Below, piece after piece: positions 16,099-24,099 of a stretch of DNA of 32,000 bases; positions within the stretch are counted from its first letter, which is position 1, and the number at the start of each line of letters is the position of its first letter. The notes beneath the pieces are model-generated. The model was not told where the DNA came from. It made no database searches and was given only the letters and a program-made list of their open reading frames with translations. The DNA is from Moorena sp. SIOASIH (lineage in GTDB: Bacteria > Cyanobacteriota > Cyanobacteriia > Cyanobacteriales > Coleofasciculaceae). The stretch covers positions 1,043,234 to 1,075,233 of the forward strand of contig NZ_JAAHIH010000004.1 in the NCBI RefSeq assembly GCF_010671925.1. The letters run 5' to 3'. Made by a program: the position numbers and the translations under genes.

Positions 16099-16354
16099 TC
16101 CCGACTCCCGACTCCCGACTCCCGACTCCCGACTCCCGACTCCCTAATAAAATCCACCTCACCCCATTCAGAAGTATGTAGGGTGGGCAGTGCAAAAGAT
16201 AGATCAGAGCAGGTGGGGATAGGATTAGTAGGCACTGCCCACCCTACTAACTAAAAAAATCCACCTCACCCCATTCAGAAGTATGTAGGGTGGGCAGTGC
16301 AAAAGATAGATAAGAGCAGCTGGGGATAGGATTAGTAGGCACTGCCCACCCTAC
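16099..16354. repeat. Composite repeat: (CTCCCGA)x6-7, then two 107-bp tandem units each holding a 70-bp GTAGGGTGGGCAGTG palindromic element (loop variant B)
   Basis: The heptamers span 16099-16144 and the hairpin elements 16178-16247 and 16285-16354. Both are preceded by AAATCCACCTCACCCCATTCAGAAGTAT. Confidence 0.9.
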
Positions 16355-16436
16355 TAACTACTAACTGATGGGGAGGGGCTGCATCAAGACATAGTAGGGA
16401 TTTTAGCTAAATTTATCAACCATCAGTCAGGTCAGT

Positions 16437-17234
16437 TCAAGCAGTTTCTTCTATAGGAAAACTCTCTCCTTTTAAATAAGAATCAAAGTGCTTCTTGAAG
16501 TAGATACTACTTGTAATATTAGGCTCATCACATTGATCGGGAGTGAATTCATAGATAGGCAATTTTGACCGAACTAGCTCAACTAATTTAGGATTGAGCT
16601 CCTCAAAGGATTCAACTCGGGAAATGGTTGTTTCAAAATGCAATCTAGCTGGATGTCCATAACCCAACTTCATCCATGGCATCCAGGGACAATCTCTAGC
16701 CCATTCCGCACTCGGTGCGCCTTTAAACCCAGGTCGAGAAAAACTAGAGGTGAAATATTCAACTCCCTTGAAAGTCTCTCCAGAACAATAGTCCTTAAAT
16801 TTAGGTTCTTGGGCTAATGGGTGCGGATATTCCAAGGGAATCTTATTTATTCTGGTTATATATCCTTGTCCTTTGGGGATAACTATTTTTCTTTCTCGCA
16901 CTGATCCTTGAACCATTCTGTTAGCGATATGTACCACTGGTAACTTTTGACTATTTTCTTTTGGCTGCCAGTGGGACAAGATTTCCTTAGTCTCTGGGTC
17001 GCAAAATAACCCAATCTCCCTGTTGAGTCGATGTCCTATTTCGCCATACTCAGGATCGGTTTTGAGGAATCCCTTAGTGGCGTTCATGCCGATAATAGAA
17101 AATAATTTCTCCTTCGGTTTACCTGGTGCTTCGACCCACCAGATATCTCCTTCCCAGCTATAGTAAAGCTGTTTACCATGATTCTGTCTGTAGAAAACTA
17201 AGGTGCTATATTCAAAATCTTCTGAATAATCCAT
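16437..17234 (-). CDS. Hypothetical protein, possibly DUF1838 family
   Basis: A 265-aa ORF with good coding appearance. The segment YYSWEGDIWW...LFSIIGMNATKG...LPVVHIANRMVQ resembles what I recall of DUF1838 proteins from cyanobacteria and plants. This was not verified. Confidence 0.4.
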   Translation of the reverse strand: MDYSEDFEYSTLVFYRQNHGKQLYYSWEGDIWWVEAPGKPKEKLFSIIGMNATKGFLKTDPEYGEIGHRLNREIGLFCDPETKEILSHWQPKENSQKLPVVHIANRMVQGSVRERKIVIPKGQGYITRINKIPLEYPHPLAQEPKFKDYCSGETFKGVEYFTSSFSRPGFKGAPSAEWARDCPWMPWMKLGYGHPARLHFETTISRVESFEELNPKLVELVRSKLPIYEFTPDQCDEPNITSSIYFKKHFDSYLKGESFPIEETA

Positions 17235-17467: not shown

Positions 17468-17655
17468 GGTCACTCCCGACTCCCGACTCCCGACTCCCTA
17501 AAAAAATCCACCTCACCCCATTCAGAAGCTCCCTACTCCCTAAATAAATCCACCTCACCCCATTCAGATGTAGGGTGGGCAGTGCAAAAGATAGATAACA
17601 GCAGCTGGCGATAGGATTAGTAGGCACTGCCCACCCTACTAACTACTAACTAACT
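17468..17655. repeat. Second, same-orientation copy of the composite repeat seen at 16099-16354
   Basis: (CTCCCGA)x3 + AAATCCACCTCACCCCATTCAGA (twice) + palindromic element 17570-17639 + CTAACTACTAACTAACT. Confidence 0.9.
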
Positions 17656-17710: not shown

Positions 17711-18217
17711 ATGGAACCATTAGCCGCTGCCGTTGTCGCTATTTCTACTGTGCTCGCCACTAAAGCCTTAGAAAAAACTGGGGAAAATGTCGGGCAAGTT
17801 GTTTGGGACCAGACTAGCCAGTTTGTAGAATCCCTGAGAAACCAGTCTCCAGATACAGTAATGGCTATTGAGAAAACCCCAGAGGTACCTCTTAATTATG
17901 CCGACGTGGTATTGGAAGTAGAAGCAGCAGCGAAGCAAAATCCCGAAGTTGCCCAAGCCATGGAGCATTTAGTGGCTACTGTTGATGCTGAAGCTTTGCC
18001 TAACTTAGAGGAAATTCTTGAAAAGATTACCAAAGCCTTGGAATCCCACGAGGCTACTGGTGAGAATTACAACAATGAAAACGTGAAGAACTTTGCCAAA
18101 GGGGATATTATTAATCAACATAATCCTAATTTTGGAGAAAAACAAACTAATATTGGAAATATTGGAGAAAACCAAACTATTCAAAGAGGCGAAAATTTTC
18201 AAAATATTAATATTTGA
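17711..18217 (+). CDS. N-terminal module of the NLR-like locus: alpha-helical domain plus an N/Q/G-rich tail, ending at TGA 18215-18217, which is in frame with the downstream NB-ARC ORF
   Basis: A 168-aa ORF. It opens with a hydrophobic first helix (MEPLAAAVVAISTVLATKALEK), followed by an acidic helical region. The tail GENYNNENVKNF / GDIINQHNPNF / GEKQTNIGNI / GENQTIQR / GENFQNINI forms pseudo-repeats. Confidence 0.6.
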   Translation: MEPLAAAVVAISTVLATKALEKTGENVGQVVWDQTSQFVESLRNQSPDTVMAIEKTPEVPLNYADVVLEVEAAAKQNPEVAQAMEHLVATVDAEALPNLEEILEKITKALESHEATGENYNNENVKNFAKGDIINQHNPNFGEKQTNIGNIGENQTIQRGENFQNINI

Positions 18218-21200
18218 CTGCAGTCGCCTCGGAGTGAGGTTAAACAAACTCGACCAAATCAAGCACCCCCACTACCTCCGTATTATGTCGAACGCCCGGA
18301 AGTAAGCCAACGACTAAAACAAATTCTTTTATCTGAAGAAACCGCTAAAGCTGGCACCTTAGTTGTTAGTGCCATCTATGGTTTAGGAGGCATTGGGAAA
18401 TCCACCATTACTGCCGCCTTAGCCCATGATCCAGAGGTTCAATCCCATTTTCACGATGGGATTTTTTGGGCAACCTTAGGTCAGCAGCCTGATATTTTAT
18501 CCTTTCTAAGTACGTGGATACAGGCATTAGGAGATTATGACTTCAAACCGATTAATATTGATAGCGCTTCTTTACAATTAAGAACGTTATTATCCGATAA
18601 AAAAGCCTTACTAGTCGTGGATGATGTTTGGCATCCTGACCATGTTGAACCCTTTCGAGTAGCCGGTGGTGGCTGTCGGGTTTTAGTGACCACCAGAGAA
18701 GCTCCGGTTAAAGGTGCGATTCGCTATGATTTAGACGTGATGACTCCAAAGCAATCCTTGGAGTTATTAACGTCTTGTTTACAGCTTTTTTCAGATGAAT
18801 CGACCTCACTCCCTTTAGCTGCAAGCCCCCTAAATCCCCCAATTCTGGGGGACTTTAACTCAAGTTACCCCCAAAGTTGGGGGGCTAGGGGGGCGAAAAT
18901 TGCTGTAAACAACGAGTTAACTAATCAAGAACTCGACTATGCTAAAACCTTAGCAAAAACTGTCGGCTACTTACCCCTAGGATTAGAATTAGCTGCTGCC
19001 CAAGTTAGGGATGGATTCTCTTGGGAAGAGTTACTGGGTGAGTTAAAAGCAGAAATTGCTGATTTAGAAGCTTTAGATCGATTGGAAGCAGAGGAAGAGC
19101 CAAGTGACGCTAAGCGCAAAAACTACAGTCTTGTCGCTTCCTTTAATCTCAGTTTAAAGCGATTATCCCCCGAGAGATTGAAAAAATTTGCTTGGTTAGG
19201 GGTACTGCCCGATGATGTCACCATTACTGAAACCATGGCGACTACGTTATGGAACTGTAATTCATTTAAAGCCAAAAAGACTTTACGATACTTACGGCAA
19301 AAAGCCTTATTACTACCTGGTGTATCTAGTACCCAAGACACTAACTATCGCCTCCATGACCTGTTACATGATTTAGCCCGTAATCTGCTGCAACCAGAGC
19401 TAGGATTATCAATTACCGAAGCTCATCGGCAATTATTAGAACGTTATCAAACTAAGACCGATAAGGGATTATGGCATACGTTACCTGATGATGGTTATAT
19501 CTATAACCACTTAACCTGGCACCTAGAGAAAGCTGAAAAGATAGATGAAATTCATCAACTCCTGAAAGAAGAAACTCCAGAAGAAGATAACGGTTGGTAT
19601 TGGCAGTGTGAGAGACAGGGAAATACTGCTAATTTTGTTAAGGACCTATCGAGAGCTTGGGCAATAGCAGCAGCCAATTTTACAGAAAATCCTACAGAAT
19701 CGATTAGTTTACAGTGTCGGTATGCTCTGATTACCACATCCCTCAACAGCTTGGCTGGAAATATTTATCCAGAGTTAATGGCAGCATTACTGGAGAACAA
19801 AATCTGGACTGCAGCTCAAGCACTAGCTTATGTGCGACAGATTAAAGATTCTAGTAGGCAAGCAGAGGGTTTGGAGGCAATTAGTGAGTATCTTCCCCTT
19901 TCTTTATTACCGGAAGCTTTAGATTGCGCCACAGGGATTTCCGATGAATACTACCGACCCTATGCCTTAAGAGCCTTAGCCCCCCACTTACCGGATCTGT
20001 TGTTACCCCAAGCCTTAGATTGCGCCACAGGGATTTCCCATGAATACTCCCGAGACTATGCCTTAGTCGCCTTAGCCCCCCACTTACCCGATGTGTTGTT
20101 ACCTAAAGCCTTGGATTGCGCCAGAGGGATTTCCGATGAAAAAGACCGAGCCTATGCCTTAGTGGCCTTAGCCCCCCACTTACCCGATGTGTTGTTACCC
20201 CAAGCCTTAGATTGCGCCAGAGGGATTAAGTCTGAATACCACCGAGCCGATGCCTTAGTCGCCTTAGCCCCCCACTTACCGGATCTGTTACCGGAAGCCT
20301 TAGATTGCGCCAGAGGGATTAAGTCTGAATACCACCGAGCCGATGCCTTAGTCGCCTTAGCCCCCCACTTACCGGATCTGTTACCGGAAGCCTTAGATTG
20401 CGCCAGAGGGATTTCCGATGAAAAAGACCGAGCCGATGCCTTAGTCGCCTTAGCCCCCTACTTACCTGATGTGTTGTTACCCCAAGCCTTAGATTGCGCC
20501 AGAGGGATTTCCCATGAATACTCCCGAGCATTAGCCTTAATCCGCTTAGCCCCCCACTTACCGGATGTGTTACCGGAAGCCTTAGATTGCGCCATAGGGA
20601 TTTCCGATGAAAAAGACCGAGCCGATGCCTTAGTCGCCTTAGCCCCCCACTTACCCGATCTGTTGTTACCCAAAGCCTTAGATTGCGCCAGAGGGATTTC
20701 CCATGAATACTCCCGAGCCAGAGTCTTAGTCGCCTTAGCCCCCCACTTACCGGATCTGTTACCGGAAGCCTTAGATTGCGCCAGAGGGATTTCCGATGAA
20801 TACTCCCGAGCAGAAGCCTTAGTCGCCTTAGCCCCCCACTTACCGGATGTGTTACCGGAAGCCTTGGATTGCGCCAGAGGGATTAAGTGTGAAGGCTTCC
20901 GAGTTTTTGCCTTAGTCGCCTTAGCCCCCCACTTACCGGATGTGTTACCAGAAGCCTTAGATTGCGCCAGAGGGATTTCCCATGAAAAAGAACGAGCCGA
21001 TGCCTTAGTCGCCTTAGCCCCCCGCTTACCCGGTGTGTTGTTACCCCAAGCCTTAGATTGCGCCAGAGGGATTTCCCATGAATACTCCCGAGCCTATGCC
21101 TTAATCCGCTTAGCCCCCCACTTACCGGATGTGTTGTTACCCAAAGCCTTAGATTGGGCCAGAGGGATTTCCCATGAATACTCCCGAGCCGATGCCTTAG

Positions 21201-22360
21201 TCGCCTTAGCCCCCCACTTACCGGATGTGTTACCGGAAGCCTTGGATTGCGCCAGAGGGATTGACCATGAATACTCCCGAGCCAGAGTCTTAGTCGCCTT
21301 AGCCCCCCACTTACCCGATCTGTTGTTACCCAAAGCCTTAGATTGCGCCAGAGGGATTGACCATGAATACTCCCGAGCAGAAGCCTTAGTCGCCTTAGCC
21401 CCCCACTTACCGGATCTGTTGTTACCCCAAGCCTTAGATTGCGCCAGAGGGATTTCCGATGAATACTCCCGAGGCCATGCCTTAGTCGCCTTAGCCCCCC
21501 GCTTACCGGATCTGTTGTTACCCAAAGCCTTAGATTGCGCCACAGGGATTTCCCCTGAAAACTACCGAGCCTATGTCTTAGTCGCCTTAGCCCCCCGCTT
21601 ACCGGATCTGTTGTTACCCCAAGCCTTAGATTGCGCCAGAGGGATTTCCCATGAATTGTTCCGAGCCCATGCCTTAGTCGCCTTAGCCCCCCACTTACCC
21701 GATCTGTTACCGGATGAAGCCTTAGATTGTGCCAGAAGGATTTGGAATGAATGCGAGCGAGCATTAGCCTTAGAAGCCTTAGCCCCCCACTTACCCGATC
21801 TGTTGTTACACCAAGCCTTAGATTGCGCCACAGGGATTTCCCCTGAAAACTACCGAGCCTATGCCTTAGTGGCCTTAGCCCCCCACTTACCGGATGTGTT
21901 GTTACCCAAAGCCTTAGATTGCGCCAGAGGGATTAAGTCTGAATCAGACCGAGCCCATGCCTTAGTGGCCTTAGCCCCCCACTTACCGGATGTGTTGTTA
22001 CCCAAAGCCTTAGATTGCGCCAGAGGGATTTCCCATAAATTATACCGAGCCGATGCCTTAGTCGCCTTAGCCCCCCACTTACCCGATCTGTTACCGGAAG
22101 CCTTAGATTGCGCCAGAGCCATTGGGGATGAATCCGAGCGAGCCGAAGTATTATTACAGGGCTTGATCAAGAGATTAACTCCTTCGTCAGTTGATTTTCC
22201 TCTTTGGCAACAAATTCTTGATGGTTTAGCTAGTCTAACCCGTCCCAATTTTCTTGAAGCTCTTCCTAAATTAGCTCCTTTAATCATTAAGTTTGGGGGT
22301 ATTGAAGCCCTAAGAGAAACGGTGGCAGCGGTTGAAGATGTTAGCCGATGGTGGAAGTAG
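18218..22360 (+). CDS. STAND NTPase: NB-ARC domain + about 24 HEAT-like 31/32-aa repeats + helical C-terminal cap. There is no canonical start codon before the P-loop, so it is probably one gene with 17711-18217 (a pseudogene or recoded gene)
   Basis: The frame is open from 18218. The motifs are P-loop GLGGIGKST (18380-18406), Walker B/kinase-2 LLVVDDVW (18608-18631), RVLVTTRE, a GLPL-like GYLPLGLELAAAQV (from 18965) and an MHD-like RLHDLLHDLA (19349-19378). The first ATG/GTG/TTG in frame is GTG 18617, which lies inside Walker B. Confidence 0.8.
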   Translation: MQSPRSEVKQTRPNQAPPLPPYYVERPEVSQRLKQILLSEETAKAGTLVVSAIYGLGGIGKSTITAALAHDPEVQSHFHDGIFWATLGQQPDILSFLSTWIQALGDYDFKPINIDSASLQLRTLLSDKKALLVVDDVWHPDHVEPFRVAGGGCRVLVTTREAPVKGAIRYDLDVMTPKQSLELLTSCLQLFSDESTSLPLAASPLNPPILGDFNSSYPQSWGARGAKIAVNNELTNQELDYAKTLAKTVGYLPLGLELAAAQVRDGFSWEELLGELKAEIADLEALDRLEAEEEPSDAKRKNYSLVASFNLSLKRLSPERLKKFAWLGVLPDDVTITETMATTLWNCNSFKAKKTLRYLRQKALLLPGVSSTQDTNYRLHDLLHDLARNLLQPELGLSITEAHRQLLERYQTKTDKGLWHTLPDDGYIYNHLTWHLEKAEKIDEIHQLLKEETPEEDNGWYWQCERQGNTANFVKDLSRAWAIAAANFTENPTESISLQCRYALITTSLNSLAGNIYPELMAALLENKIWTAAQALAYVRQIKDSSRQAEGLEAISEYLPLSLLPEALDCATGISDEYYRPYALRALAPHLPDLLLPQALDCATGISHEYSRDYALVALAPHLPDVLLPKALDCARGISDEKDRAYALVALAPHLPDVLLPQALDCARGIKSEYHRADALVALAPHLPDLLPEALDCARGIKSEYHRADALVALAPHLPDLLPEALDCARGISDEKDRADALVALAPYLPDVLLPQALDCARGISHEYSRALALIRLAPHLPDVLPEALDCAIGISDEKDRADALVALAPHLPDLLLPKALDCARGISHEYSRARVLVALAPHLPDLLPEALDCARGISDEYSRAEALVALAPHLPDVLPEALDCARGIKCEGFRVFALVALAPHLPDVLPEALDCARGISHEKERADALVALAPRLPGVLLPQALDCARGISHEYSRAYALIRLAPHLPDVLLPKALDWARGISHEYSRADALVALAPHLPDVLPEALDCARGIDHEYSRARVLVALAPHLPDLLLPKALDCARGIDHEYSRAEALVALAPHLPDLLLPQALDCARGISDEYSRGHALVALAPRLPDLLLPKALDCATGISPENYRAYVLVALAPRLPDLLLPQALDCARGISHELFRAHALVALAPHLPDLLPDEALDCARRIWNECERALALEALAPHLPDLLLHQALDCATGISPENYRAYALVALAPHLPDVLLPKALDCARGIKSESDRAHALVALAPHLPDVLLPKALDCARGISHKLYRADALVALAPHLPDLLPEALDCARAIGDESERAEVLLQGLIKRLTPSSVDFPLWQQILDGLASLTRPNFLEALPKLAPLIIKFGGIEALRETVAAVEDVSRWWK
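18824..18895. repeat. 72-bp G/C-hairpin small repeat inserted in frame within the NB-ARC domain
   Basis: CCCCCTAAATCCCCCAATTCTGGGGGAC...CCCCCAAAGTTGGGGGGCTAGGGGGGCG contains the hairpins CCCCCA-ATTC-TGGGGG and CCCCCAA-AG-TTGGGGG. It encodes SPLNPPILGDFNSSYPQSWGARGA between the RNBS-B-like and GLPL-like motifs. A related CCCCCCTTAGTAAGGGGGG repeat lies intergenically at 24205-24223. Confidence 0.65.
19916..22170 (+). repeat. Coding tandem array of about 24 units of 93/96 bp (31/32 aa), consensus ALDCARGIxxExxRAxALVALAPHLPD(L/V)(L)LP(E/Q/K)
   Basis: Counted by eye from the translation. Units at 20204-20296 and 20297-20389 are 93/93 identical. The backbone is nearly invariant at DNA level, and variation clusters at a few codons. 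Confidence 0.9.
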
Positions 22361-22651: not shown

Positions 22652-22933
22652 ATGGAAAACGTCAATCAAATTACCTTAAATTTACCCACAGATTTGCTGA
22701 AAACTACAGAAGAACTAATTCAGACAGGACTAGTAAAGAATCTTGAGGAATTAGTTGTATTAGCCTTGCATCATGAAGTTGCAAAAATTAAAGGATTACA
22801 GCCAAACAATCAACAGCTACCACAAAATAGCAATGGTGTAGATGATCCCATTTGGGGACTCGGAGAGAATCCAGTTGTGGGTGGAGTCAGTGATGCTTCT
22901 ACATCTATTGATCAGTATTTATATAACTATTAA
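22652..22933 (+). CDS. Antitoxin-like protein (ribbon-helix-helix/CopG-like), VapB-type partner of the downstream PIN toxin
   Basis: A 93-aa ORF. ITLNLPTDLLKTTEELIQTGLVKNLEELVVLALHHEV fits a beta-strand plus two helices. Its stop lies 2 nt before the PIN gene start (TAATAATG). Confidence 0.6.
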   Translation: MENVNQITLNLPTDLLKTTEELIQTGLVKNLEELVVLALHHEVAKIKGLQPNNQQLPQNSNGVDDPIWGLGENPVVGGVSDASTSIDQYLYNY

Positions 22934-22935
22934 TA

Positions 22936-23343
22936 ATGAATTGCTTGTTTTTAGACACAAGCTATGTTATAGCTTTAGAATTAGCGGATGACCAAAATCA
23001 CTCAATCACTTTAAATCATTGGCAAAGTTTAGACAGAAAGACTTTAAAGTTAGTCACAACGTCTTATGTTTTTGATGAAGTGGTAACCTTCTTAAATAGT
23101 CGTTATCTTCATAGTAAAGCTGTTGAAATAGGAAAACGTTTACTAACCAGCTCTGTAGTAGATTTGATTCAGGTTAATGAAGTTCTTTTTTTAGAAGGGT
23201 GGGAATATTTTCAGAAATATCAAGATAAATCGTATTCGTTAACAGATTGCCTATCTTTTGTGGTGATGAACAAGCTAAAAATTAATGTTGCTTTAACATT
23301 TGATCAACATTTTGTACAAGCCGGATTTATTAAGTTACCATAA
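22936..23343 (+). CDS. vapC: PIN-domain ribonuclease toxin (VapC family)
   Basis: A 135-aa ORF. It has MNCLFLDTSYVIALE (first acidic PIN residue), FDEVVTFL, and the SLTDCLSFVVM...ALTFDQHF distal acidic residues. The size and gene pairing are typical of VapBC. Confidence 0.8.
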   Translation: MNCLFLDTSYVIALELADDQNHSITLNHWQSLDRKTLKLVTTSYVFDEVVTFLNSRYLHSKAVEIGKRLLTSSVVDLIQVNEVLFLEGWEYFQKYQDKSYSLTDCLSFVVMNKLKINVALTFDQHFVQAGFIKLP

Positions 23344-23538: not shown

Positions 23539-24099
23539 TTATGTTACATCTTCATACAAAGCCTCAAGACTAGTTCTAAAATCCACAGTTTCTAGATGAA
23601 TCTCACTGCCCGGATAATAAAATTGTAATGTCCAAATTCCCTCGGAATTTCGGCGGAAGCAATCTAAGCGTTTACGGTTTTGACTAATTAAAACATATTC
23701 AACCAAGGTTTCTAATTGTTGATAGTCCGAAAATTTATCACCCCGGTCAAAGGCTTCAGTTTTGGGAGATAAAACTTCCACAATTAAGCAAGGATATTTT
23801 TTATAGTTAGTCAATTCTCGGTCTCTGGCATCGCAAGTCACGAAAACATCAGGATAATAATAACTATTGGATGCTTCGACATAAGCTTTCATATCTGCCA
23901 TATAAACCCGACAGCCAGTGCCCCTGACATGATTTCTTAACAGGGCAAATAAGTTACCGGCAATAGTAACATGGGCATCACTCGCCCCAGCCATGGCATA
24001 GACTTCTCCATCACTATACTCGTGTTTGATGGAACTATCTTCTTCGTAGGATAGATACTCTTCTTTGGAAATGTAATTGGGGCTTTTATCAGCAATCAT
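23539..24099 (-). CDS. Uma2-family endonuclease (DUF820, PD-(D/E)xK-like putative restriction endonuclease)
   Basis: A 186-aa ORF with YLSYEEDSSIKHEYSDGEVYAMAGASDAHVTIAGNLFALL, PDVFV and LIVEVLSPKTEAFDRGDKFSDYQ. This is the characteristic D...EVxS..T...D...K..Y pattern of Uma2 proteins, which are abundant in cyanobacteria. Confidence 0.85.
   Translation of the reverse strand: MIADKSPNYISKEEYLSYEEDSSIKHEYSDGEVYAMAGASDAHVTIAGNLFALLRNHVRGTGCRVYMADMKAYVEASNSYYYPDVFVTCDARDRELTNYKKYPCLIVEVLSPKTEAFDRGDKFSDYQQLETLVEYVLISQNRKRLDCFRRNSEGIWTLQFYYPGSEIHLETVDFRTSLEALYEDVT

Follow-up and report, generated by a model that had tools for sequence, protein, structure and literature searches.

The 32,000-nucleotide (nt) stretch of DNA from the cyanobacterium Moorena sp. 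SIOASIH analyzed here (RefSeq assembly GCF_010671925.1, contig NZ_JAAHIH010000004.1, positions 1,043,234 to 1,075,233 of the forward strand; the whole stretch is referred to below as the window) carries a small open reading frame (ORF) at window positions 17711 to 18217. The ORF starts with ATG, ends with TGA at 18215 to 18217, and encodes a protein of 168 amino acids (aa) that is identical to NEO39492.1 of Moorena sp. SIOASIH. The frame stays open past the TGA, from 18218 to 22360, and this continuation encodes a linker, an NB-ARC domain, an APAF1_C helical domain, and a repeat array. Here and below, features lie on the plus strand unless stated otherwise. Judging from sequence comparisons, we propose that the 168-aa protein is a Bell-type, membrane-targeting cell death effector in which a helical bundle shields a hydrophobic first helix and a BASS-like tail follows, and that this effector and the NLR encoded downstream are not the usual two-gene partners but parts of one reading frame split by a single UGA.

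The small protein and the ORF that follows it

AlphaFold2, supplied with an alignment of 52 sequences, predicts six helices in the 168-aa protein (residues 3 to 23, 29 to 45, 47 to 54, 63 to 76, 78 to 93, and 99 to 112), and block means of the predicted local distance difference test (pLDDT) score are 83 to 95 over residues 1 to 110. Together, the helices form an all-alpha domain (residues 1 to 112, positions 17711 to 18046) that is assigned to the Bell type by homology to published Bell proteins. Helix 1 (17717 to 17779), which comes after an M-E-P-L start, is the most hydrophobic segment of the protein: the Kyte-Doolittle mean of residues 1 to 19 (1.38) is the highest among the 19-residue windows sampled, with a Glu at position 2. 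An earlier note, made from the letters of this DNA without database searches, had predicted a helical N-terminal module opening with a hydrophobic helix, and the structural prediction bears this out. The protein begins with MEPLAAAVVAISTVLATKAL (MEPLAAAVV...). Across the family, M1, E2, and P3 are invariant or nearly so, and the N-terminal 90 residues are strongly conserved, with the start MEPL(T/A). This start, with its acidic residue at position 2-3, is close to the “MEPIS” signature reported for Bell, Hell, and Avast2 and some antiphage NLRs (Ibarlosa et al. 2024, bioRxiv 10.1101/2024.11.07.622273).

A homology search returned ~170 close homologs of the 168-aa protein, and the 120 that were listed are standalone proteins of 128 to 174 aa. 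Their sources include Moorena, Gloeothece, Microcystis, Nostoc, Woronichinia, and Hormoscilla, and all are cyanobacteria where the source is named. An exhaustive profile search produced 358 cluster representatives; 143 of the best 150 are shorter than 220 aa. The Bell domain and ten families of BASS motifs were defined by Dyrka et al. 2020 (bioRxiv 10.1101/2020.01.06.895854), and Table S2 of that work lists relatives of the window protein as BASS5 pairs. These are the Mastigocoleus pair KST70145.1/KST70146.1 (our locus L060), whose first protein is 53% identical to residues 1 to 106 of the window protein, as well as Nodularia and Nostoc proteins with the tails KLADKIGQVVMPGGTGNIQNQ and a Microcystis protein with the tail SQSSGQKTYIKTIEKIVNFSQRDIN. 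By these homologies and by its domain features, rather than by its fold, the 168-aa protein is a member of the published Bell family.

Scans of the 168-aa protein against Pfam, NCBIfam, and PADLOC gave no meaningful match. A sequence profile search of the Protein Data Bank (PDB) found de novo helical bundles only, which were matched because of composition. In a Foldseek search against the PDB, no match had E<1, and Rx-CC and Bcl-2 appeared at E ~2. There was no significant fold match to HeLo, Rx_N, or Bab, the presence of a Bab structure in the PDB copy searched being unconfirmed. Therefore, from the likeness to plant CC, fungal HeLo, and bacterial Bell domains that the earlier note had suggested, the Bell part is retained, through the homologs in Table S2, and the HeLo and Rx_N parts found no significant fold match.

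The C-terminal part of the protein (residues 117 to 168, positions 18059 to 18214) is a tail rich in N, Q, and G. Its first 25 aa (18059 to 18133) align with a C-terminal motif found throughout the family, and its last 27 aa (18134 to 18214) are an extension specific to Moorena. N, Q, and G make up 48% of the tail versus 11% of the preceding head; with V and I included, the values are 63.5% and 27.6%. K, P, and L account for 7.7% of the tail versus 19.8% of the head. The tail thus has the composition described for BASS motifs, which are rich in Q/N/G/V/I and poor in K/P/L. Residues 134 to 168 are unstructured in the AlphaFold2 model (pLDDT <50), a result that is uninformative on amyloid propensity.

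The tail had been described as a run of pseudo-repeats. It does contain G-[E/D] five times versus 0.7 times expected, a number reached in none of 5000 shuffles, and N-[I/F] seven times versus 2.7 expected, which was reached in 12 of 5000 shuffles. A direct DNA repeat is also present (18128 to 18179; 22-nt copies at 18128 to 18149 and 18158 to 18179, 91% identical, with a spacing of 30 nt). Since this repeat encodes both NFGEKQTN and NIGENQTI, the two peptides represent a true duplication. Self-alignment of the whole tail was not significant (its score was reached by 38 of 500 shuffles), so the pseudo-repeat consists of a short periodic pattern plus one duplication and is not a clean array.

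In the continuation past the TGA, Pfam matches were obtained for NB-ARC (4.1e-19) and APAF1_C (1.6e-6). The Walker A motif, or P-loop, of the NB-ARC domain (GLGGIGKST) is located at 18380 to 18406, and the first canonical start codon after the TGA, GTG at 18617, lies beyond it. Positions 19907 to 22118 are occupied by a repeat array of 23.3 copies of a 96-nt (32-aa) unit, with 85% matching and the consensus ALDCARGIS.EYSRA.ALVALAPHLPD..LP, which we presume to be the sensor region. With an NB-ARC nucleoside triphosphatase (NTPase) followed by a repeat sensor region, the downstream ORF is by its predicted domain order an NLR/STAND gene. Long antisense ORFs over the array (e.g., 20883 to 21764, minus strand) are probably by-products of the repeats. 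Comparison of the tail with the peptide encoded directly after the stop revealed no copy of the tail motif on the NLR side in the window (z = 0.2; 123 of 300 shuffles scored as high).

The UGA junction and its RNA hairpin

To see how common this arrangement is, we fetched 80 genomic loci of the family and tabulated the 77 in which the small ORF has normal size. In 50 of the 77, from ~20 cyanobacterial genera, the small ORF ends with TGA and the frame continues for at least 150 codons (in L012, up to the end of the contig). TGA is the stop codon in 50 of 50 in-frame loci, followed by C in 47, by A in two, and by G in one; in the window, UGA-C (18215 to 18218) continues with UG CAG. None of the 21 loci whose small ORF ends with TAA or TAG has an in-frame continuation. 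The loci ending with TAA or TAG have the canonical Bell/BASS organization, in which the NLR is encoded by a gene of its own that has an ATG and an N terminus matching the effector tail. In six two-gene relatives, the effector tail scored z = 3.6 to 15.2 against the NLR N terminus, versus z = −1.3 to 2.1 for the NLR side of TGA loci, which has no motif of its own.

A downstream P-loop was found in 33 of the TGA in-frame loci, in all 33 in frame 0 and with no other stop in between. The spacers of these loci have seven different lengths, each divisible by 3 (144, 147, 150, 153, 162, 180, and 240 nt). ATG, GTG, and TTG are all missing ahead of the P-loop in eight loci, the window included, and in many other TGA loci the first “start” codon is the Val of the conserved FVGRE motif. 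The in-frame extensions are 180 to 1242 codons long. Their partners are diverse (two kinds of NB-ARC, several types of NACHT with or without HEAT repeats, CHAT-like proteins with TPR, and PsbP-like proteins), and all start with a common linker, L-(Q/E/K)-S-(S/P)-x-x-E-(R/Q)-x-K. The linker that follows the motif in two-gene NLRs is homologous to the linker that follows the UGA (GEKQLRPTK..IPRGSVHFVGRE versus ERERTKLTPTKYIPYRGSVHFVGRE).

A sense codon in place of the TGA was seen in none of the loci, and an uninterrupted Bell-tail-NB-ARC protein is absent from the 150 best representatives. We take these two absences to argue that both the short and the long product matter. True fusions do occur in the family; their partners are dynamin-like guanosine triphosphatases (GTPases) or other non-STAND proteins, e.g., HEAT-repeat proteins, and the tail is missing. 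Thus, the distant Bell-like members P0169, P0214, P0221, and P0256 are fused directly to a dynamin-like GTPase of ~700 aa, with neither a stop nor an N/Q tail, and P0138, L029, and L085 are fused to HEAT-repeat proteins. The earlier note had regarded the locus as a possible intermediate between fused and two-gene architectures. This pointed in the right direction, but a one-off transition does not describe an architecture that is widespread and conserved and has a nucleotide signal of its own. One decayed paralog was also seen, at about 6001 to 6900 of L015 (Moorena sp. SS36440bin_2); its Bell domain is broken by stops, the tail, TGA, and hairpin are deleted, and ...VENYNIDNVNNQTRFNQAPPLPPYYVERPEV leads directly into the NB-ARC domain.

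The nucleotide signal extends past the stop codon. The junction has the consensus TGA CTR NAG TCG YCY GAM SGG GAA CGG RYA AAG, and its conservation exceeds the needs of the protein. Eight nucleotides past the UGA, the window RNA can form a hairpin (18226 to 18240) with an energy of −6.2 kcal/mol, in which GCCUC (18226 to 18230) pairs with GAGGU (18236 to 18240) across the loop GGAGU (18231 to 18235). In an alignment of 43 sequences, the 5–base pair (bp) helix is paired in 95.3% of cells, versus 14 to 39% when the 3′ partner columns are slid by one to three positions, and RNAalifold predicts the identical helix independently. Compensatory changes are seen at three of the five pairs. At 19-35, 20 sequences have UA and 19 have CG; at 21-33, 22 have CG, 11 have UA, and 9 have UG; and at 22-32, 35 have GC and 5 have CG. 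In 36 cells, both sides have changed. Other Moorena loci have GCCUG with CAGGU, a compensatory pair relative to GCCUC/GAGGU of the window.

The Ser/Pro codon located at the stem base has G as its synonymous third base in 43 of 43 sequences. The synonymous column 21 covaries with a nonsynonymous base 11 nt from it, which selection acting at the protein level cannot account for. Among 12 divergent junctions, 11 fold this helix at the same offset, with energies of −5.3 to −10.3 kcal/mol. Rfam has no match at the junction, and its sole weak matches are in a palindromic repeat upstream. A second stem, in which the loop (GGGA) could in many loci pair with UCCC or CUC 7 to 9 nt past the first stem, is paired in 75.7% of cells; with few compensatory changes and a need for register shifts, we regard it and the pseudoknot it would create as tentative. 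The hairpin loop (alignment columns 23 to 31) is purine-rich throughout and resembles a Shine-Dalgarno sequence (GGAGU, GGAGG, CGGGAA, and CAGGAA).

The junction was also used as a query in its own right. A relaxed motif scan of both strands of all fetched loci found 41 junctions and 16 other sites, just one of which has long ORFs on both sides; it is in L002 and is a second copy of the junction of L001. When metagenome contigs were scanned with nothing but the junction pattern, 44 loci were found; having been retrieved with a pattern that contains TGA, these are not independent evidence for the stop codon. The modules upstream of the junction in these loci belong to the Bell family studied here, to several other Bell-like subfamilies with N/Q/G-rich tails of their own, and, in one case, to an alpha/beta-hydrolase of the DUF676/PGAP1 type. 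Downstream are NB-ARC, NACHT, and other ORFs, in frame every time. These results suggest that the junction is not restricted to amyloid-tailed effectors; being shared by varied effectors and NTPases, it is a transferable link that joins effector modules to sensor NTPases.

The other Bell-like subfamilies are found at the junctions of L091, L094-L096, L101, L105, L107-L109, L115-L116, L120-L121, and L130. Starts among them include MEPLTAGAIATLAFTKAFEKT, MTDPVTTLTAFAIAEFAFKKF, MLETIPLLLATPIAKII, and MEPLTLGAAFLIFIGG, and each has its own Q/N/G-rich tail, e.g., NIGKIQGQNVQNVYGGEAQQNN..APVIQGGSNHNITFN. The hydrolase locus is L113 (JAAUYH010089630.1, junction at 1610 to 1642), whose continuation contains the P-loop IIISGKPLTGKSRA.

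Proposed readthrough and competing explanations

We consider programmed readthrough of the UGA, yielding abundant free effector and a rare effector-NLR fusion, to be the probable explanation of these loci; the case for it is a comparative one. UGA-C and UGA-CUA are leaky contexts, and 3′ structures ~8 nt downstream act as stimulators (PMC7026636). The junction combines a conserved UGA-C, an in-frame coding extension lacking a start, and a covarying, GC-rich 3′ structure at 8 nt, and it is by such features that programmed readthrough signals are defined (PMC7026636). Most ribosomes would terminate at the UGA and release the ~18-kDa effector. On a minority, a near-cognate tRNA (most likely tRNA-Trp) would read the UGA, and translation would proceed through the NB-ARC and repeat sensor to give an effector-tail-NLR fusion of ~1549 aa. 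Because the post-motif and post-UGA linkers are homologous, the fusion would carry the tail in exactly the place that the NLR-side motif occupies in canonical pairs. Upon sensing of a trigger, the sensor would oligomerize and bring the tails of the fusion molecules together. The clustered tails might then nucleate a fold, presumably amyloid, that recruits and activates the pool of free effector, and membrane damage would follow.

Several observations weigh against this explanation or parts of it. To our knowledge, structure-stimulated readthrough is established for viruses and eukaryotes and is not established for cellular bacterial genes. The hairpin is short, and single junction sequences are not significantly more stable than their shuffles (z = −0.5 to −1.9), and for the window junction, folded in a 48-nt window, z was −0.09. 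The coding signature directly past the stop is modest: the ratio of nonsynonymous to synonymous changes (pN/pS) in the first 20 codons is 0.58 in the Nostocales group and ~1.1 in Moorena, values of modest weight, as constraints on the RNA are superimposed on the coding signal here. The C terminus of the L113 hydrolase is not N/Q-rich, so templating by a tail cannot be the universal reason for the junction.

Further difficulties concern the window copy itself. A hidden Markov model (HMM) of BASS5 built from 18 Table S2 sequences (motif nlr_08) scored 0.8 bits on the window tail, as did 5.5% of shuffles, and 32 to 48 bits on two-gene relatives. An HMM of the KIVNFAQRDIN class scored −0.9 bits, with 113 of 300 shuffles as high, and the sole local match to this class is a 7-residue core, NFAKGDI (6.6 bits). 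HMMs from Table S2 and from the family tails thus both failed to capture the tail of the window protein. The BASS-like tail of the earlier note therefore holds as regards composition and position, which is that of BASS5 in relatives, and does not hold as regards the profile score and the matching motif on the NLR; the window tail is a BASS motif only in part. In addition, the NB-ARC domain of the window contains an in-frame insertion of 126 nt (42 aa), QLFSDESTSLPLAASPLNPPILGDFNSSYPQSWGARGAKIAV, at 18782 to 18907, which is absent from the Moorena bouillonii ortholog (L009). It is flanked by a 26-nt inverted repeat (18767 to 18792 and 18895 to 18920) and resembles a small mobile element of the repeat type that leaves the reading frame open. 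The window copy of the NLR may be impaired by these 42 aa.

The first alternative is an ordinary two-gene operon, in which translation stops at the UGA, the NLR is made from a noncanonical start near the stop, e.g., CUG at 18218, and the hairpin serves coupling, mRNA stability, or mRNA processing. Published Bell and NLR genes are typically collinear and either overlap or are separated by ≤10 bp (Dyrka et al. 2020), the codon next to the UGA is CUG in the window, as in many other loci, and L011 has GTG at this place. In many loci, however, the codon after the UGA is CUA, CUU, CUC, CCA, CAG, AUA, or GUA, which are mostly not starts, and inspection of the sequences found no canonical start at a usable distance from the Shine-Dalgarno–like loop. 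An operon also leaves unexplained why TGA is used exclusively and why 33 of 33 loci preserve the frame over seven spacer lengths, and the NLR it would produce would have no motif for signaling to the effector. We therefore consider it unlikely. Two related mechanisms were ruled out. A +1 frameshift of the prfB type was considered for the CUU UGA C present in three loci and was rejected as the NLR is in frame 0; reinitiation from the Shine-Dalgarno–like hairpin loop was rejected as there is no start codon 5 to 9 nt downstream.

A second alternative, which we rate slightly lower still, is that the downstream NLR ORFs are untranslated, that only the small protein is made, and that the junction acts as a DNA-level site, e.g., for recombination that shuffles modules. 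The joining of many different upstream and downstream modules by a junction of ~40 nt would fit such a site. Also in line with it, GACTNNAGTC at the stop is partly palindromic, and in the window GACTGCAGTC around the stop is a 10-bp palindrome. But the compensatory changes preserve pairing of the RNA type, including G-U, which would be meaningless in duplex DNA. The downstream ORFs remain open over 400 to 1240 codons with their domain signatures, and pN/pS before the P-loop is 0.43 to 0.51 in frame 0 versus 0.8 to 3.5 in the other frames.

It is very improbable that the UGA encodes selenocysteine and that the hairpin is a bacterial selenocysteine insertion sequence (SECIS) element, even though bacterial SECIS elements are laid out in this way, with an in-frame UGA and, immediately after it, a conserved stem-loop whose apical loop has G residues (PMC9312934). 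Two surveys report the selenocysteine trait to be absent from Cyanobacteria (selA, selB, and selC were not searched for in the genomes used here). Nearly all selenoproteins have homologs with Cys, but Cys or any other sense codon is present at the UGA position in none of ~95 loci. The position is in an interdomain linker and not at a redox site, and the stem has just 5 bp.

A decayed all-in-one Bell-NLR pseudogene with a nonsense mutation, or a sequencing error, is scarcely credible: the repeat element inserted in the window NB-ARC and the clearly broken relatives L015 and L061 would suit decay, but the identical TGA position and context in 50 loci of ~20 genera effectively refute it, and no intact uninterrupted Bell-tail-NB-ARC ancestor is present among the representatives.

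The surroundings of the two ORFs contain further repeats and small genes. Copies of a composite repeat at 16104 to 16367 and 17472 to 17650 flank a DUF1838 gene (16437 to 17234, minus strand) just upstream of the Bell ORF. The composite repeat contains runs of the heptamer ACTCCCG, a unit of 107 nt, and the palindrome GTAGGGTGGGCAGTGC...GCACTGCCCACCCTAC; this palindrome alone accounts for the weak, microRNA-like Rfam matches mentioned above. Directly downstream of the NLR, a small ORF (22652 to 22933) and a gene for a PIN-domain protein (22936 to 23343) form a toxin-antitoxin–like pair, and an Uma2 endonuclease gene follows on the minus strand (23539 to 24099). The Nostoc relative L006 has PIN_3, Uma2, and DUF6887/6888 genes as neighbors.

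Relation to known systems and significance

The closest known systems are the two-gene Bell/BASS pairs for amyloid signaling in filamentous bacteria, above all the cyanobacterial BASS5 pairs, of Dyrka et al. 2020, with which the window protein shares its family: L060 is one of these pairs, and Microcystis proteins of the ARI84452 type are related. The order is also the same, a Bell domain, a C-terminal motif of ~25 aa rich in N/Q/G/I, and an NLR immediately downstream on the same strand. The loci described here differ in that the NLR has neither a second copy of the motif nor a start codon and in that both ORFs share a single frame, parted by the conserved UGA-C and RNA hairpin. The window tail, which has 52 aa and contains a duplication, is in addition longer and has no match to the BASS5 profiles.

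Bab/Agp of E. coli (bioRxiv 10.1101/2024.11.07.622273) and HET-S/NWD2 of Podospora are similar in having a small helical effector with a hydrophobic N-terminal helix and a MEP-type start, which an adjacent sensor activates through a short C-terminal amyloid motif. These are, however, two-gene systems with the motif on both proteins. The Bab domain has ~80 aa and five helices versus ~112 aa and six predicted helices here, and there is no significant sequence or fold match between them. All-in-one NLRs, such as plant CC-NLRs, Avast2, and bNACHT with the MEPIS motif, resemble the predicted long product, in which an N-terminal Bell-type domain is followed by a NOD and repeats; the difference is that the fusion here would arise by recoding only, beside an excess of free effector.

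Established readthrough signals include those of Q-beta coat/A1 (UGA, ~5%), Sindbis nsP4 (UGA-C), and murine leukemia virus gag-pol (an 8-nt spacer and a pseudoknot) (PMC7026636). They share with the junction UGA-C, often as UGA-CUA or UGA-CUG, a structure 8 nt downstream, and a short abundant and a long rare product with a common N terminus, products that we can only infer here. Unlike those viral and eukaryotic signals, the junction lies in cellular cyanobacterial genes, has a 5-bp hairpin as its putative stimulator, and owes its proposed function to comparison.

Neither a stop codon nor readthrough nor an in-frame arrangement is mentioned in the Bell/BASS papers, the conflict-systems paper of Kaur et al., a 2026 STAND survey, or the articles found by full-text searches, a coverage that is incomplete, so that a prior description is possible. 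The Bell domain, BASS motifs, their pairing with NLRs, and programmed readthrough were all known; apparently new is the UGA-hairpin junction in place of a second gene and a second motif copy. Gene prediction programs annotate each of these loci as two genes, one for a “hypothetical protein” and one for an NLR truncated at its N terminus, so that a screen looking for the motif in both proteins is bound to miss them. ACK72244 of PCC 7424 (L001), for example, is absent from the published table of pairs, and the screen behind that table required a motif pair.

A more general claim would be that many NLR-type immune genes of cyanobacteria are expressed via a recoding element, consisting of UGA-C, an 8-nt spacer, a hairpin, and maybe a pseudoknot. 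In a minor share of translation events, this element would join a sensor NTPase to the death effector encoded upstream, which may come from several Bell subfamilies or be an alpha/beta-hydrolase. The outcome would amount to structure-stimulated readthrough in cellular bacterial genes combined with amyloid signaling from one gene. We think this claim is about as apt to stand as to fail.

Bell/NLR pairs are the bacterial counterpart of amyloid-controlled cell death in fungi and animals. Both the matching of motifs and a safe ratio of effector to sensor are open questions there, and, if our explanation is true, one translational device would answer both. The receptor-side and effector-side motifs would be the same sequence by construction, so that no coevolution of copies would be needed and cross-talk between the many paralogs within one genome would be avoided. 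The junction, at ~45 nt, is small enough for direct testing in a reporter. Accepted cellular examples of programmed readthrough are very few, most cases being viral or eukaryotic, and the loci described here would then represent a clear and testable bacterial family of it.

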